A DNA stretch of 64,000 nt from Escherichia coli. Its GTDB lineage: Bacteria > Pseudomonadota > Gammaproteobacteria > Enterobacterales > Enterobacteriaceae. Position numbers and translations under genes: made by a program. A model generated the notes under the pieces. It saw only the letters and a list, made by a program, of their open reading frames with translations. It was not told the origin of the DNA and did no database searches. Position 1 is the stretch's first letter, and each line of letters starts with the position of its first letter. The stretch lies in the NCBI RefSeq assembly GCF_003334765.1, contig NZ_QOWT01000002.1. One strand, written 5' to 3'. Positions 15,493-42,904 of this stretch are shown here, in pieces.

Positions 15493-16188
15493 TTAATAAA
15501 GCAGTGAACCAAGCAGACCGATACCAGCACCGATACCAGCACCCCACGGAGTTGATGAACCAATTAATTTCGCAAGTCCAGCCCCAGCAATAGCACCAGA
15601 CGCACCTCCGCCAATAGCAGATTGCATTGCTGATGGTCTGTTGGCATTTGCCGCTGCAAGAGCCGCACTTTGCTGCGAAATCTGACTCATGTTGTTGGCA
15701 TATGTCTGCCCGGCGTTTGCCTGACCTTGCAGTGCGCCAAGACCAATATTTGCCAGATTCTGGTAGTTGTTCATCTGACCAGATAGCCATTGCTGACCAA
15801 GCGTTGGTGCGATTGTTGCTAACTGATTACCGGTTGCAGTGGAACCCAATCCACCTGTTGCTTCCGCTGCCGCCAGACTCTGATAGCGAGCCTGACCAGC
15901 AAGATCTTTGTACTGCTGAGAGTTGTAATACTGGTTAAGTGCCTGACCTTGCCCTTCCAGAGACGATAAGTTCTCGAGGCTGCCGACATACTTATCAGCC
16001 AGAGGAGTAAACGGCTTCAGGTTGTTCATGATGGTGTTGAACTGCTGATTTTGCAGGTCTGCGGCATACTTCTGAGCTTCTGCTGCATACTTTGCGCTTT
16101 TATCAGAACTGCCACCTTTCCCGCCTTTTTCAGGGCAATAAGGTTCCTCGCCGCGCAGTTTTCTGCCCAGCTTAAATGCATATAACAT
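15493..16188 (-). CDS. Ejection protein, P22 gp7-like (C-terminal 231 codons of the 460-aa ORF)
   Basis: From MLYAFKLGRKLRGEEP... the ORF is Q/N/G/A-rich with a Gly-rich hydrophobic C-terminus; length matches P22 gp7 (about 229 aa). Confidence 0.45.
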   Translation of the reverse strand: MLYAFKLGRKLRGEEPYCPEKGGKGGSSDKSAKYAAEAQKYAADLQNQQFNTIMNNLKPFTPLADKYVGSLENLSSLEGQGQALNQYYNSQQYKDLAGQARYQSLAAAEATGGLGSTATGNQLATIAPTLGQQWLSGQMNNYQNLANIGLGALQGQANAGQTYANNMSQISQQSAALAAANANRPSAMQSAIGGGASGAIAGAGLAKLIGSSTPWGAGIGAGIGLLGSLLY

Positions 16189-16875
16189 GGCTAACGCCGA
16201 GATGCCGTATTGCGCATAGCTCATACAATCAATTTCGCCTTCGCAAAGTACAACCGCCCTCACGCCAGCGTCCAGAGCCTGCCATCCGAACAGACAAGGT
16301 TCGCAATCACCTTCTGCCATAATGACTTTCTTCCCGTCCGGGCGCTCAGTGCTGATTCGCTTGACCTGCAACAACTCACCATCGCGTTTGTACGGAATCA
16401 CCAGAGCATCCAGTTCTCGCTCTCCATTCCACACCTTGCCGCTGACAACCTCGTAGCGCTTTACGATTTCTGGCGATATGCCACGCGATTGCAGGTACTC
16501 AAGATGGGATTCTGTTCTGGTAACGTAGCGGGCGATTTTCTTGCGATCAGGTCTGGAGAATTTCTTCTCACGTCTGGCATCGAAATGGTGATCGTCATCC
16601 TTGATACCGAGAAATGCTTTCGCTTCCTGCATAGCCTGATGCAGGTTAATTCCACGACATGCCATCCACAAATCAAGCATGTCACCGCCGTCTCCCTCAG
16701 CGAAATCAGCCCATTTTTTCTTGCCGCTAAGGTTGACCTTAAGGCTGTTTCCCTTGTCACCGTTGACGTTACCGGCAACCCACTCATGCCCCTCTTTCTT
16801 GCCGTTTGGCAACAGGTGCGGAGCCACCCTGTCAACCTGCGCCCAAAGCAGGTCGCTAAGTTCACTTGGCGTCAT
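16189..16875 (-). pseudogene. Truncated toprim-domain DNA primase (N-terminal 229 codons) fused in frame to the gp7-like gene
   Basis: Degenerate zinc-finger-like WADFAEGDGGDMLDLWM then toprim motif VVLCEGEIDCMS; no downstream DxD motif; directly follows O-like gene. Confidence 0.5.
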
Positions 16876-16982: not shown

Positions 16983-17843
16983 TCACCTGTCGAAAAACAC
17001 GTAGCCAGTTTTCGATACGGTGATTGCGGATGATGGTTTGGATTGTGGTTGAATGGTTTCTGGCTTTTCGTCGTTCCAGCGCTGACCGTTCAGGTAGCTC
17101 GATGGTAACAACCTGTCGAATCCGAACTGCTTACCATTCCTGCATGCGATGTCTTCTGCCAGCATCGTGGCAAACTCGCTTGCCGTACCCCTGGTAGTTT
17201 TACGCCATTCCCTGAACTGTGTTCTGAATGCCGAAGCTGCGTTTTTCTTCCCGGCTTTCCGCATGCCTGCACACCAGAATATTTCCTCGAATGCCTTGTC
17301 GGTTTCTTCGTGACGGTCAGGTGATTTTTCACACTCCGTCCGAACACTTTCGGACATAGTGTTTTTATTATTTCTTTTTTCTTTTGTAATAGTTTCTTTT
17401 GTGTGTCCCTGTTTTGGTGACAGCGCTGTCACCGTTTTGGTGACACTTTTTGTCACCAATGCGGTGACATTATCACCAGAGTAGTGACACCCTTCGATTT
17501 GCCATTCCTCGATGTTCTTGTTAGGCCCGATTTGCTGGCCTTCGCGAAGGATAACCTTCATCGCGATAAGCTCATTCTTGGCCTTGTTTACCTTCTGTCT
17601 TGGCAGCCTGGTAATTTGAGCTAACTGACTATCAGAGATGCGATCCATCTTTTTACCGTAGCCGTATGTTTTACGGCATATGGCGTGGGCAACCTTGCTC
17701 TGATTTTTCGTTAAATCTGCGCCGATAAGCTCTTCATACAGGGCATTTGCAAGACGGGTATAACCATCTTCAACTTCTGCCACACGACGCTCCACAGGCC
17801 GTTGTGAAGGCCTTAAATGTGTTACGGTTGCAAGATTACTCAT
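16983..17843 (-). CDS. Replication initiator, lambda O-like (P22 gene 18-like)
   Basis: 286 aa; follows cII; iterons and AT-rich stretch lie inside the gene as in lambda ori. Confidence 0.65.
17359..17490. other. Phage replication origin: GGTGACA/TGTCACC iterons plus adjacent AT-rich region inside the O-like gene
   Basis: TTTTGGTGACAGCGCTGTCACCGTTTTGGTGACACTTTTTGTCACCAATGCGGTGACATTATCACC next to TTTTTATTATTTCTTTTTTCTTTTG. Confidence 0.6.
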
Positions 17844-18016: not shown

Positions 18017-18295
18017 TCAGGCCTCGAAGAATTCGCCGTTCTTCGGGGCTTTTTCTTTTGTCAGCATTCTGGCTACTTGCTTAGCCAGTTCCGCCAACTC
18101 CTCGTCTTCAACACCCCATTCAAGAACAGCAAGAAGCATTCCCATTTTGGGGATGAAGCTGTCTTTCCATCGCGAAATTTGCGATTCATTAATCCCTAAC
18201 GCGTCGGCAACCTTTCGCTGACCACGTACAGCAATTCGATTCAGGATGTTGCTTGTAATTGCATTCGCTTTCTTGCGAGTACTTGTAAGTTGCAT
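18017..18295 (-). CDS. CII-like transcriptional activator
   Basis: ...[46 protein letters not shown] resembles lambda CII ...[25 protein letters not shown]. Confidence 0.8.
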
Positions 18296-18353
18296 ATGTA
18301 AGTATTTCCTTAACTAATAAGAAGTTATGCGCATCAACTTATGCGCGTTGTAT

Positions 18354-18397
18354 TCCCGCATTTCGGCGGGAATGAGGACCATGACTGTTAAAGAGCG
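18354..18397 (-). promoter_or_regulatory. nutR: boxA CGCTCTTTAACA (18386..18397) and boxB hairpin TCCCGC-CGAAAT-GCGGGA (18354..18371)
   Basis: Read on minus strand just downstream of cro; boxB identical to the nutL copy. Confidence 0.6.
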
Positions 18398-18403
18398 GTG
18401 TTA

Positions 18404-18604
18404 CTATTTGTTTTTCTTGTTGCTTGGGAAAGGACGAACTTCCTCTCCAATCACACTGCCATCAGGCTTTACCGTAACCATAATGTTACGGCCTGCCAGA
18501 ATGGCCTTGCTGATAGCGCACTGGATTACACCAAAGTCACTGGCTGCTTTAGCCTGTCCATGGATTTTGGCGTAATCGGCAAGTGTCATTCGAATCATAT
18601 GCAC
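18404..18604 (-). CDS. cro: Cro repressor
   Basis: ...[59 protein letters not shown] resembles lambda Cro. Confidence 0.85.
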
Positions 18605-18629
18605 TCTCCGTTATTAACCATGAACAAAG

Positions 18630-18693
18630 AATACTACAGGTATTCAAAGCAATCAATACTCAGGGTATTTTTAGTTTAAGTACCTTAGCTATT
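18630..18693. promoter_or_regulatory. OR operators: AATACTACAGGTATT (18630..18644), AATACTCAGGGTATT (18655..18669), variant AGTACCTTAGCTATT (18679..18693)
   Basis: 15-bp palindromes at about 24-25 bp spacing between divergent cro and cI. Confidence 0.6.
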
Positions 18694-18704
18694 AGAATTA
18701 AGCT

Positions 18705-19421
18705 ATGGAAAATAAAAAATCACTGACGACAGAACAGCTCGAAGACGCTAAGCGGCTTAAGGCTTTGTATGAGTCAAAAAAGAAAGAATTGGGAATAACC
18801 CAATACTCAATCGCTGATGAACTGGGTATCACCCAAGGAGCGGTAGGGCATTATCTTAATGGCAGAAACGCGCTAAACGTTGAGGTCGCATCTGGTTTTG
18901 CACGTTTGTTGCAAGTCTCAATTGCTGATTTTAGCCAGTCAATTGCTGCCAAGGTTGCAGAACAGGCAGAAAGCCTTAAGAGCGATGCCAACGTAAGGTA
19001 TGCAGGGGAATACAGAGCAGGAAAGAGGTATCCGGTGTTAAGCAGTATCCAGGCTGGCTCGTGGTGTGAAGCATGCGAACCATACACCATTAAAGACATA
19101 GATGTTTGGCTTGAGTCTGACGCGCATATTCAAGGTAATGCGTTCTGGCTTAAAGTGGAAGGTGATTCAATGACGGCACCGGTTGGGTTAAGCATTCCAG
19201 AGGGAACATTCGTTCTTTTCGATACCGGAAGGGAGGCGATCAACGGCAGCTTGGTCATAGCAAAACTTTCTGACTCTAACGAAGCAACATTCAAGAAGCT
19301 GATAATCGACGGCGGAAATAAATACCTCAAGGGACTTAACCCTGCATGGCCTCTCGTGCCAATCAATGGAAACTGCAAGATTATAGGCGTTGCAATTGAG
19401 ACAAAACTAAGGCTGGTTTGA
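18705..19421 (+). CDS. cI: CI repressor (HTH plus S24 LexA-like autopeptidase domain)
   Basis: 238 aa; N-terminal HTH (QYSIADELGITQGAVGHYLNG), C-terminal ...KVEGDSM...ATFKKL; no SD before ATG, consistent with a leaderless pRM transcript. Confidence 0.85.
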   Translation: MENKKSLTTEQLEDAKRLKALYESKKKELGITQYSIADELGITQGAVGHYLNGRNALNVEVASGFARLLQVSIADFSQSIAAKVAEQAESLKSDANVRYAGEYRAGKRYPVLSSIQAGSWCEACEPYTIKDIDVWLESDAHIQGNAFWLKVEGDSMTAPVGLSIPEGTFVLFDTGREAINGSLVIAKLSDSNEATFKKLIIDGGNKYLKGLNPAWPLVPINGNCKIIGVAIETKLRLV

Positions 19422-19440
19422 TCACGCAAGGGGGGCGCTT

Positions 19441-19809
19441 ATGGTTGGAACCGCTATAGCAAGCTTTTTGGGGATGTTGGCAATCTCAACAATTTACGGC
19501 TTAGCGCATGCTTTTATTGCGAAATCTCTATCAGAAAAAATAAGCCAGGCTTGGGCGCATAGATCAGCTCGTTTCATGATTCTAGTGGTCATAGCAATAC
19601 AAGGGATATCTGCATTTATCCTCTATGGATCAAGCTTATACCTGTTGTATCAAGGAGCGACATTTACGCCTTACACCAGTGATTACGGAACTCTATACGA
19701 TGGTAGTGAAGACATCTCTATGGCTTGGATCGTCTTTGGTTTATCTATGGCCGTGTCTGTTGTAGCAGACATCATTAAGGTAATTCTCGTCTTAACCTTC
19801 GCTGACTAA
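19441..19809 (+). CDS. Small 3-TM membrane protein co-transcribed with cI (rex-locus position); candidate exclusion/abortive-infection factor
   Basis: 122 aa, three hydrophobic helices, strong SD AAGGGGGG 19 bp after cI stop. Confidence 0.6.
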   Translation: MVGTAIASFLGMLAISTIYGLAHAFIAKSLSEKISQAWAHRSARFMILVVIAIQGISAFILYGSSLYLLYQGATFTPYTSDYGTLYDGSEDISMAWIVFGLSMAVSVVADIIKVILVLTFAD

Positions 19810-19895
19810 CCCATAATCCCGGCAGCAATAGCTATCGGGATCCACTTCACATATCCCGCATAAAAAGCACTGAACAAGCAGATACCGAAAAAATA

Positions 19896-19980
19896 AATAT
19901 CCTTTGTATTCATTTGTTTATCATTATTTCATCAAAAATAAATACCTTGGGTATTTACACAATAAAATACCTACAGTATT
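19896..19980. promoter_or_regulatory. OL operators: AATATCCTTTGTATT (19896..19910), AATACCTTGGGTATT (19941..19955), AATACCTACAGTATT (19966..19980); pL region
   Basis: Same AATAC-N5-GTATT palindrome family as OR, upstream of the N-like gene. Confidence 0.55.
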
Positions 19981-20028
19981 CTTTAGCCATCAGCAGGACG
20001 CTGGAAGCCAAACGGAACAGATTGGCAG

Positions 20029-20069
20029 GCTCTTTAACATTGATGGGATTGTCCCGCCGAAATGCGGGA
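20029..20069 (+). promoter_or_regulatory. nutL: boxA GCTCTTTAACA (20029..20039) and boxB hairpin TCCCGC-CGAAAT-GCGGGA (20052..20069)
   Basis: rrn/lambda-like boxA followed 12 nt later by 6-bp stem hairpin identical to nutR boxB. Confidence 0.6.
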
Positions 20070-20176
20070 ACCAAAGAGTAGTTGGCTTTGGGGTGACGTG
20101 AAGTGCAGCTGCACGACGGCAACCGGAAGATAAGCACCCGGCGCGTCACCGCCAAAGCCAATCATCGGAGGTCAAC

Positions 20177-20473
20177 ATGATAATCGTTACTTATCTGGCT
20201 GATGATAACACCAGAAATCGCCGCAGAGCACGCAGACAGGCTCAACGTGAACAGGCAATGCAAGAACAGCGACTTGCGCGAAAAATTGCGCTAAAGCTCT
20301 CTGGTTGCGTCAGAGCAGATAAAGCAGCATCACTCGGAAGCCTTCGCTGCAAGAAGGCAGAAGAAGTCGAGCGTAAACAGAACCGTATTTACTACCGCAA
20401 GCCACGCAGTGAAATGGGTGTGACTTGTGTTGGTCGCCAGAAAATGAAATTAGGCAGCAAACCACTTATTTGA
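20177..20473 (+). CDS. N-like transcription antiterminator (arginine-rich motif)
   Basis: 98 aa; N-terminal ARM DDNTRNRRRARRQAQREQ; strong SD GGAGG; first gene after pL/nutL. Confidence 0.65.
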   Translation: MIIVTYLADDNTRNRRRARRQAQREQAMQEQRLARKIALKLSGCVRADKAASLGSLRCKKAEEVERKQNRIYYRKPRSEMGVTCVGRQKMKLGSKPLI

Positions 20474-21084: not shown

Positions 21085-21164
21085 GCATACCAATAACGCT
21101 TCACGAGAGGTGTTTATTCATGAGCGTAAACGCTGATTAATGAACGCAGTTGATAGGATATAAA

Positions 21165-21677
21165 ATGGCATTTATAAAGATTCTTGAATTAATTTCCCTA
21201 AGTGAGATTAATAATGTTGTCAAATATAACCCTATTTCTGGTGAGTTCACATGGCTAAAATCTTATGGAGCAAGAAAGATAGGTGGAACTGCCGGAACAA
21301 TAACAACAAGCGGCTACTTAAGGATTTTCATTAACGGAAGACACTATGCTGCACATAGACTTGCATGGATTATCACTTTCGGTGTTGAGCCTGAAGGTAT
21401 TATCGACCATATAAATGGCATAAAGACAGATAACAGAATTTGCAATCTGAGGCTTGCAACTTACTCACAGAATTCAATGAATAGTAAAATAAATACCCTC
21501 AACAAATCAGGTTGCAAAGGAGTCACATGGAAGAAGGAAAGTAGAAAGTGGGCTGCCTATGGGAAATTAAACGGGAAGAAAAAACATCTAGGGTACTTTA
21601 ATGAATTAGAAGATGCCAAAAAAGCTTACTGCGACTTTGCCAGAAAGCATCACGGCGAATTCTACAGGAGCAAATAA
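21165..21677 (+). CDS. HNH endonuclease with AP2-like DNA-binding domain
   Basis: HINGIKTDNRICNLRLATYSQN HNH motif; C-terminal GVTWKKESRKWAAYGKLNGKKKHLGYFNELEDAKKAY AP2-like; ORF track starts at TTG 21150. Confidence 0.7.
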   Translation: MAFIKILELISLSEINNVVKYNPISGEFTWLKSYGARKIGGTAGTITTSGYLRIFINGRHYAAHRLAWIITFGVEPEGIIDHINGIKTDNRICNLRLATYSQNSMNSKINTLNKSGCKGVTWKKESRKWAAYGKLNGKKKHLGYFNELEDAKKAYCDFARKHHGEFYRSK

Positions 21678-41653: not shown

Positions 41654-42904
41654 TCAGATGGCGTGGTTTTGCTTCATTGCAGCAATTTCATCGTCGCTAT
41701 AACCCAGCTCCTGCAATACAGCAGCGGTATGTTCACCTAATAGCGGCGCAGCTTTAATATCCGGCGTAAAGGCAGAGAATTTCATTGGACAACCAACGGT
41801 CAGATATTTTCCACGCAACGGTTGTTCCACTTCAACAACACTGCCACTTTGGCGCAAAGAGGGATCAAGTGAAATTTCTTTCATACTTAAAACCGGTGCA
41901 CAAGGAATATCAAACTGAGTCAAATAGGCCACCGCTTCATGTTTATCAATAGTGACAGTGTATTTTTCGATTTCAGCAAAAATATCGAAAATATGTGGCT
42001 GTCGTGCATGGGCTGTACTGTATGCCGGATCGGTAATCCATTCTGGTTTGCCGATGGCTTTACAGGTGTTTTCCCAGTTTTGCTCCTGAATAGTGAAATA
42101 AATATAGGCGTTAGGATCGGTTTCCCAGCCTTTACATTTCAGGATCCAGCCAGGCTGACCGCCACCACCTGCATTACCACCGCGGGGAACTGCATCACCA
42201 AATGTACCATTCGGATACTGCGGGTATTCTTCCAGATAACCCAATTTATCGAGACGCTGCTGGTCACGTAATTTCACGCGGCAAAGGTTCAATACGGCAT
42301 CCTGCATTGACATGGTGACTCGTTGCCCACGCCCCGTTTTTTCGCGATGCAGCAAAGCAGCAAGTAAACCGATCAGCAAATGCATTCCGGTGTTGCTGTC
42401 ACCCAACGCTGCAGCGCTTACCAGCGGCGGACCATCCCAAAAACCCGTAGTGGATGCCGCGCCACCCGCTGCCTGAGCAACGTTTTCATAGGCTTTTACA
42501 TTCACATAAGGCGAACACTCATCAAACCCTTTGATCGAACCAAAAATCAGACGTGGATTGATTTCTTGAATATGCTCCCAGGTGAAGCCCATGTGATCAA
42601 TGGCCCCTGGATGAAAGTTCTCGACTAAGATATCAGCTTCGCGGATCAGCTTTTCCATTACCTCTTTGCCTTCCGCTGTTTTGGTATTTAACTCAATAGA
42701 ACGTTTGTTACTGTTAAGCATGGTGAAGTAAAGCGCATCGATATCAGGAATATCTCGCAGCTGGTGACGCGTTACGTCACCAACGCCGGGACGTTCAATT
42801 TTAATAACGTCAGCGCCAAACCAGGCCAGCATTTGAGTACAAGATGGGCCAGATTGCACACCGGTGAAATCGAGAACTTTAATTCCTTGAAGTGGAGTTG
42901 ACAT
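41654..42904 (-). CDS. frc: Formyl-CoA:oxalate CoA-transferase
   Basis: 416 aa family III CoA-transferase; recognised. Confidence 0.9.

Follow-up and report, generated by a model that had tools for sequence, protein, structure and literature searches.

The closest described counterpart of the immunity region treated here is that of phage HK620, whose GenBank record (AF335538; Clark, Inwood, Cloutier and Dhillon, 2001) already annotates OR1-3, OL1-2, pR, pL, nutL, nutR, tR1 and pRE. In that record the cI protein is compared with the 434 and L repressors, not with the lambda repressor. For the Salmonella phage epsilon34, putative operators (WTACRAWWTGTAT) that share the ATAC-N5-GTAT core of the sites described below have been proposed in the same positions, i.e., upstream of PL and PR (PMC2629481). 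Additionally, a published "evolutionary code" for Cro (Cordes) links three helix residues to bases of the half-site, H1 Gln to A+2, H3 Ala to A+5 and H6 Lys to C+6 (PMC6649833). No binding, footprinting or transcript-mapping data for the HK620 immunity type were found in the searchable literature, and the functional reading of the region therefore rests on homology and comparative evidence.

An HK620-type immunity region in a prophage remnant

Within the 64-kb window (the whole stretch of DNA that was analysed), the region 18300-20200 shows 98.4% nucleotide identity to HK620 (AF335538) and 98.7% to mEpX2. Its cI protein is 100% identical to that of mEpX2 and 99.6% identical to that of HK620, Cro is 100% identical to both, and the OR stretch and the OL operators match both phages base for base. 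The annotated OR1-3, OL1-2, pR, pL and nut features of AF335538 map onto the sites found here. The region is thus very probably an HK620-type immunity (lysis/lysogeny) switch carried by a deleted P22-like prophage, and, judged by sequence, its immunity type is that of HK620, with near-identical cI, Cro and operators. As AF335538 already carries these features and the region is near-identical to that of HK620, the switch is an ordinary and already known one, and its recovery here is a rediscovery of an annotated immunity type. An earlier note on this DNA had suggested a distinct immunity specificity; the specificity is that of HK620, a known type which the note had not recognised.

The same immunity region is present in mEpX2, HK630, HK140, HF4s and some Stx2c phages. 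The full region occurs in 146 of 5426 complete E. coli genomes (~3%), and an identical cI is encoded by at least 80 viral contigs. The similarity to HK620 has its bounds: the N gene of HK620 diverges from the N-like gene of the window right after the start codon, and HK620 is a phage, whereas the prophage of the window is a deletion remnant. The genes and nut sites of the region are the following:

16983-17843: O-like replication gene, lying with cII beyond cro
18017..18295, minus strand: cII-like activator (phrog_191, E 1.6e-37; cII in AF335538)
18352..18397, minus strand: nutR, with boxA CGCTCTTTAACA (18397-18386) and a boxB hairpin (18373-18352); fold -15 kcal/mol, z -2.1; nutR in AF335538
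18404..18598, minus strand: cro, 64 aa, lytic repressor of the lambda-Cro fold (phrog_35), with a GGAGAG Shine-Dalgarno sequence 5 nt ahead of the ATG
18705..19421, plus strand: cI repressor, 238 aa (phrog_4), with a lambda-cI-like HTH N-terminal domain and an S24 self-cleaving C-terminal domain
19441..19809, plus strand: hkaS-like membrane protein, 122 aa (phrog_6534, function not known; hkaS in AF335538), in the position of rex
20029..20069, plus strand: nutL, with boxA GCTCTTTAACA (20029-39) and the boxB hairpin UCCCGC-CGAAAU-GCGGGA (20052-69), from the fold, nutL in AF335538 and the mEpX2 boxA
20177..20473, plus strand: N-like antiterminator, 98 aa, arginine-rich at the N terminus (phrog_271, E 4.7e-35)

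The nutR site lies just downstream of cro, and the OL cluster lies upstream of the N-like gene, with OL1 and OL2 overlapping pL (TTTACA-17-TATTCT). The hkaS-like gene is probably co-transcribed with cI; PADLOC returned nothing for its product. A hairpin at 19816-19841 (-13.7 kcal/mol, z -3.5) was considered as a terminator and set aside because it is not followed by a T-run.

The switch sits in a P22-like (Lederbergvirus-type) prophage of only ~20.7 kb, located between the tRNA-Arg(CCT) gene argW (5556-5630) and dsdC. In an ORF at 15493-16875, the N-terminal part of a primase/helicase (228 residues) is joined to a DNA-ejection protein, and this fusion marks a deletion by which the nin, Q, lysis and head genes were lost. 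A similar remnant with a different junction is found in strain GF4.

Comparison with the lambda switch

Inspection of the region shows the organisation of a lambda-type immunity switch, namely divergent cI and cro genes separated by a multi-site operator, an OL placed over pL ahead of N and nut, and a repressor that combines an HTH domain with a LexA/S24-type domain. The tripartite OR/OL layout that the earlier note had described is accordingly in place, with divergent cro and cI, an N gene, nutL and nutR, and operators over pR and pL. The cI and Cro proteins are homologous to those of lambda, the operators are in both cases 17 bp long with a central base pair, and the overlaps between promoters and operators are the same. 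The OR is likewise tripartite in both, with spacings of 24/23 bp in lambda as against 25/24 bp in the window. The differences lie in the distance between OR and OL, which is about 2.4 kb in lambda and 1.34 kb here, in the replacement of rexAB by the 122-aa membrane protein, in the distance of OL3 from OL2 (20 bp in lambda, 45 bp here), and in the operator sequence itself, as lambda lacks any AATAC-N5-GTATT site. The half-site, which the earlier note had not recognised from lambda, 434 or P22, is indeed not theirs, and no such site lies in the immunity regions of lambda and PA2.

Operators and promoters

A pattern scan of the 64-kb window recovers exact matches to AATACNNNNNGTATT at 18630-18644, 18655-18669, 19941-19955 and 19966-19980, and two degenerate sites complete the OR and OL clusters, in full agreement with the coordinates first given for the two clusters. 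The operators and promoters, with the rank of each site by a position weight matrix (PWM), are:

18628..18656, minus strand: pR, read from the sequence, TTGATT (18656-18651), 17 nt, TATTCT (18633-18628); matches pR of AF335538
18629..18645: OR1, 17-mer GAATACTACAGGTATTC, exact core, PWM rank 4, over the pR -10; OR1 in AF335538
18654..18670: OR2, CAATACTCAGGGTATTT, exact core, PWM rank 2, overlapping the pR -35 and abutting the pRM -35; OR2 in AF335538
18670..18705, plus strand: pRM, TTTAGT (18670-75), 17 nt, TAGAAT (18693-98), 6 nt, predicted leaderless start at A18705 of the cI ATG
18678..18694: OR3, AAGTACCTTAGCTATTA, core AGTACCTTAGCTATT at 18679-18693 with 2 mismatches, PWM rank 8, between the pRM -35 and -10; OR3 in AF335538
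19895..19911: probable OL3, AAATATCCTTTGTATTC, core AATATCCTTTGTATT at 19896-19910 with 1 mismatch, PWM rank 6, 45 bp from OL2
19940..19956: OL2, AAATACCTTGGGTATTT, exact core, PWM rank 1, over the pL -35; OL2 in AF335538
19954..19989, plus strand: pL, from a promoter scan, TTTACA, 17 nt, TATTCT, followed after 6 nt by A19989, with which ATCAGCAGGACGC begins
19965..19981: OL1, AAATACCTACAGTATTC, exact core, PWM rank 3, over the pL -10; OL1 in AF335538

The 106-bp gap between cro and cI holds the three OR sites. Measured from centre to centre, OR1 and OR2 are 25 bp apart, OR2 and OR3 24 bp, OL1 and OL2 25 bp, and OL2 and OL3 45 bp. A spacing of about 24-25 bp had been given for both clusters; this holds for OR and for the OL1-OL2 pair, but not for the third OL site.

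The promoter geometry of pRM, pR and pL equals that of lambda. A -10-like TAGAAT stands 6 nt upstream of the cI ATG (full string TAGAAT-TAAGCT-ATG), which is the geometry of the lambda pRM (TAGATT-TAACGT-ATG), and 24 diverged lineages keep a -10-like hexamer 6-7 nt ahead of the cI ATG (see below). No Shine-Dalgarno sequence was found ahead of the cI ATG. By analogy with lambda, the cI mRNA from pRM is probably leaderless, starting at the A of the ATG; of the two statements originally made on this point, the lack of a Shine-Dalgarno sequence stands as such, while a leaderless transcript is supported by the geometry, namely the lambda-like spacing and its persistence in the 24 lineages. The -35 and -10 of pL are conserved in 7 lineages. 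When the stretch from OL to N was compared with lambda by exact motifs, the same 13 nt, ATCAGCAGGACGC, were found at an equal distance from the pL -10 in lambda, where the pL transcript begins with this motif.

Chance, terminator or operator

That the OR and OL palindromes are mere chance products of AT-rich intergenic DNA, with no regulatory role, has a negligible probability. Degenerate versions of the pattern are common, given that 43 matches to AATACNNNNNGTATT occur in the 64-kb window against 31 expected when 2 mismatches are allowed. However, the exact pattern occurs 4 times against 0.03 expected, with a maximum of 1 in any of 100 dinucleotide shuffles, and all four sites fall inside the two promoter regions, so the palindromes lie far above the background frequency that would have spoken against the claim of the earlier note. 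Beyond OR and OL, the sole site of the window with at most 1 mismatch lies at 42214, in host DNA. With a PWM trained on the four exact AATACNNNNNGTATT sites, the six OR and OL sites rank 1, 2, 3, 4, 6 and 8 among 63,984 positions. Further, the offsets of the sites from the cI ATG and from the promoter hexamers have been kept in the diverged lineages while their flanking sequence has changed, which also argues against chance.

The third OL site is more contested, and here the reading favoured below departs from the public annotation of HK620. GenBank places the OL3 of HK620 at what is 19918-19934 here (TTATCATTATTTCATCA), 22 bp from OL2, and AF335538 labels the palindrome at 19896-19910 as part of a terminator, tIMM. 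Comparison with relatives points to 19895-19911 as probably the real OL3, where the earlier note had placed it: besides its PWM rank of 6, 6 other diverged lineages also have a site close to the consensus at exactly 45 bp from OL2, and across 7 lineages the half-sites at 19896/19906 are conserved at 0.94, as against 0.59 for the 30-bp spacer. Were the palindrome instead the tIMM of the cI transcript and TTATCATTATTTCATCA the true OL3, the record would be right as it stands, and the 22 bp between its OL3 and OL2 would resemble the spacing in lambda. This seems unlikely, however, as the RNA of 19885-19925 folds at -1.1 kcal/mol (z 0.23), no more stably than shuffled sequence, a result on which tIMM was rejected as a terminator. 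Moreover, the GenBank OL3 site has no similarity to the operators, scoring -21 bits (rank 25,285 of 63,984), and its position is conserved at 0.58 in the 7 lineages, which is the spacer background. Still more improbable is a reading in which 19896-19910 is conserved not as an operator but as the start of a small hydrophobic peptide of 35 aa on the minus strand (ATG at 19913). It draws on the TTCAT (ATGAA on the minus strand) that 6 of the 7 lineages have after the site and on the plausible membrane peptide encoded by the ORF of the window. Nevertheless, the frame stops after 11 codons in lineage L044, lineage L077 lacks the ATG, and 3 of the 4 substitutions among the window, HK620 and mEpX2 are non-synonymous; the ORF also has neither a Shine-Dalgarno sequence nor a conserved promoter in the spacer, is absent from the PGAP annotation and has no PADLOC hit. 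Since its start codon and frame are not conserved in relatives, the 35-aa ORF is probably spurious. With 19895-19911 preferred as OL3, the OL3 and tIMM features of the public HK620 record are probably misplaced.

The distance of OL3 from OL2 differs in other lineages, being 21 or 29-30 bp. For operators bound cooperatively, an offset of 45 bp is unusual.

Recognition helices of cI and Cro

In searches against solved structures, cI matches the lambda repressor (3bdn) over its full length (E 2.9e-52, residues 3-232), and the best solved-structure match of Cro is lambda Cro (E 4.7e-19). Gly118, which belongs to the Ala-Gly cleavage motif, and Ser155 do not vary in an alignment of cI variants; in the match to the lambda repressor, the Ala-Gly pair and the Lys of TFKKL fall on the corresponding lambda residues. 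The recognition helices are altered in both proteins: helix 3 of cI reads QGAVGHYLNGRN as against QSGVGALFNGIN in lambda, and that of Cro reads QCAISKAIL as against QSAINKAIH. Apart from these helices, cI and Cro are close homologues of their lambda counterparts.

If each site is taken, on the model of lambda, as a 17-mer centred on one base pair, the half-site is nAATACnn. The Cro of the window has Gln at H1, Ala at H3 and Lys at H6, and all three pairings of the published code are observed, since the half-site nAATAC carries A2, A5 and C6. Lambda shares these half-site positions (A, A and C at 2, 5 and 6) together with the Gln, Ala and Lys at H1, H3 and H6 of its Cro, and its half-site, TATCACCG, differs only at positions 3-4, which are T-C there and A-T in the window. 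The change at positions 3-4 would go with the Cro substitutions relative to lambda, in which Cys replaces Ser at H2 and Ser replaces Asn at H5.

The AATAC-N5-GTATT family

Viral contigs were scanned for two AATAC-N5-GTATT palindromes 8-12 bp apart, which gave at least 120 stretches. Not every match to the pattern is an operator pair, as one of them (L118) was rejected on being an unrelated 29-bp tandem repeat. In this motif-selected set, identity to the window proteins spans 46-100% for cI and 46-100% for Cro. The 32 cI N-terminal variants keep the helix (T/S)QG(A/G)VGHY(L/M)NGR(N/I), and the 28 Cro variants keep the helix Q(C/T)AISKA. The operators stand at about -75/-50/-26 from the cI ATG, with half-sites retained and the central 5 bp varying freely, and an OR3-like site is found at -26/-27 in most of the diverged lineages examined.

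As the comparative set was for the most part selected by the motif itself, Eho49, PA2 and lambda were added as independent points, and these alone are free of that bias. Eho49 (Erwinia phage vB_EhrS_49) was found by protein similarity (tblastn of isolated phages) and not by the motif; its cI N-terminal domain is 68% identical, its helices are the same, and its OR and OL hold six AATAC-N5-GTATT sites. In contrast, PA2 and lambda, with N-terminal domain identities of ~54% and 53%, have other helices and zero such sites. The presence of the sites in Eho49 and their absence from PA2 and lambda indicate that the type of operator follows the recognition helix and not overall similarity. Taken on sequence evidence, this co-conservation of helix and half-site is the closest that computation comes to a binding test.

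The metagenomic lineages (L004-L123) and Eho49 share with the window the half-sites, the recognition helices and the offsets of the OR sites from the cI ATG. They differ from it in protein identity (46-88% for cI, 46-87% for Cro, with Thr at Cro H2 in many), in the accessory genes between cI and OL, and in the position of OL3, which lies 21, 29-30 or 45 bp from OL2. In one lineage (L010) the same cI N-terminal domain is joined to an S24 C-terminal domain that is unrelated.

Since both Escherichia and Erwinia phages keep the helices and half-sites at cI and Cro identities down to 46%, AATAC-N5-GTATT could, tentatively, define a "super-immunity" family. Its phages might then be broadly cross-immune, or heteroimmunity might be set outside the contacted bases, e.g., by the central 5 bp, the spacing of 24 versus 25 bp, the OL3 offset of 21, 30 or 45 bp, or the cooperativity surfaces; the same tentative proposal includes a conserved 45-bp OL3 that would correct the annotation of HK620.

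A model for the switch and its significance

We infer the operator binding, order of occupancy, leaderless start and role of OL3 that enter the following model, alongside the observed site statistics, identities, homologies and co-conservation of helix and half-site. By analogy with lambda, dimers of cI would occupy OR1/OR2 and OL1/OL2, operators of 17 bp with the consensus nAATAC-N5-GTATTn, turning off pR and pL and thereby silencing cro and N. At OR2, beside the pRM -35, cI would probably activate pRM, whose transcript would probably run from the A of the cI ATG and also carry the hkaS-like gene. In a switch of the lambda kind, cI would fill OR1, OR2 and OR3 in that order of preference and Cro in the reverse. 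The weaker OR3, lying inside pRM, could provide negative autoregulation of cI and the first point of entry for repression by Cro, which, having the lambda fold, would read the same half-sites as cI. Under SOS conditions, RecA-stimulated self-cleavage of cI would lead to prophage induction; SOS induction should inactivate cI, since its C-terminal domain keeps the Ala-Gly/Ser/Lys self-cleavage apparatus.

For the window itself the matter is a small one, this being a textbook-style switch that was annotated in HK620 in 2001 and is found in ~3% of complete E. coli genomes. The residual interest lies in the OL3 and tIMM features of the public HK620 record, probably misplaced according to the present comparison, and in the breadth of the AATAC-N5-GTATT family. 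If true, the 45-bp OL3 would correct an annotation of HK620 that has been in use since 2001. The family also offers a natural series in which helices and half-sites do not change although cI and Cro otherwise diverge, and which could serve to test the determinants of heteroimmunity. As to the host, the intact cI and Cro, identical to those of viable phages, suggest that the remnant probably still confers superinfection immunity of the HK620 type; given that the prophage is deleted, the switch may now serve this role only. A host carrying HK620-type immunity in such a remnant would hence probably be immune to HK620, mEpX2 and certain Stx2c phages.

The OL region and the HK620 annotation

Two features of the GenBank record of HK620 (AF335538), the phage whose type of immunity switch the window carries, fall on the following window coordinates:
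19891-19921, tIMM
19918-19934, OL3

The annotated OL3 does not resemble any of the five remaining operators, ranking 25,285 of 63,984 window positions under a position weight matrix trained on the four exact operators. The tIMM "terminator" is the palindrome AATATCCTTTGTATT, which folds with only -1.1 kcal/mol. Both features of the record look misplaced. The probable third operator of OL (19895-19911, hereafter OL3) is directly preceded on its 5' side by an A-tract, AAAAAATAAATAC (19887-19895), whose conservation of 0.93 is on par with that of the operator half-sites across the OL regions compared, namely those of the window and of the viral-contig loci L061, L042, L044, L077, L104 and L083. 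Comparable A-rich flanks are also found 5' of OL2 and OL1. The same site is overlapped by an open reading frame:
19806-19913, minus strand, 35-aa hydrophobic ORF, MNTKDIYFFGICLFSAFYAGYVKWIPIAIAAGIMG

Neither its start codon nor its frame is kept in relatives, with the L044 version reaching a stop after 11 codons and that of L077 being without an ATG; hence it is probably not a gene.

Genes flanking the switch and the prophage remnant

Downstream of cI, at the position of rexAB, lies the gene known as hkaS in HK620:
19441-19809, 122-aa multi-pass membrane protein (phrog_6534)

Its product has no PADLOC match, and the gene is a candidate exclusion or defence gene expressed in the lysogen. Shortly past its stop codon there is a strong hairpin (19816-19841; -13.7 kcal/mol, z -3.5) without a T-run; in the cI-hkaS transcript this hairpin could stabilise the RNA end or act as a Rho-independent-like element. 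Elsewhere, in the early-left operon, a 175-aa ORF (21150-21677) has a weak homing-endonuclease match (PADLOC HEase, E 4.8e-5).

The switch belongs to a prophage remnant with an internal fusion:
~5616-26249, P22-like prophage remnant, ~20.7 kb, between argW and dsdC
15493-16875, minus strand, fusion ORF

As this ORF joins a primase/helicase N-terminus (phrog_239; aa 2-228) to a DNA-ejection protein (phrog_598; aa 230-458), it marks a deletion junction. The nin, Q, lysis and head genes are absent from the remnant. Strain GF4 carries a comparable remnant, but with a different junction.

Variation in the repressor

The cI of HK620 differs from that of the window (18705-19421) and of phage mEpX2 by A66T (GFARLLQ to GFTRLLQ), a substitution observed solely in HK620's own records. 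The sequenced HK620 stock was a temperature-sensitive clear-plaque mutant, and A66T may be the mutation responsible.

In the motif scan of viral contigs, locus L118 was rejected as an operator locus: its eight tandem 29-bp repeats (L118:1360-1620), each containing AATAC-N5-GTATT, adjoin genes resembling those of sigma factors and represent an unrelated iteron-like repeat, a false positive; neither cI nor Cro is encoded near the array. Two further loci, L010 and L032, have the operators and an HK620-type cI N-terminal domain, but an unrelated S24 C-terminal domain:
L010:3935-4573, cI of L010

This is domain-level mosaicism inside the repressor gene itself.
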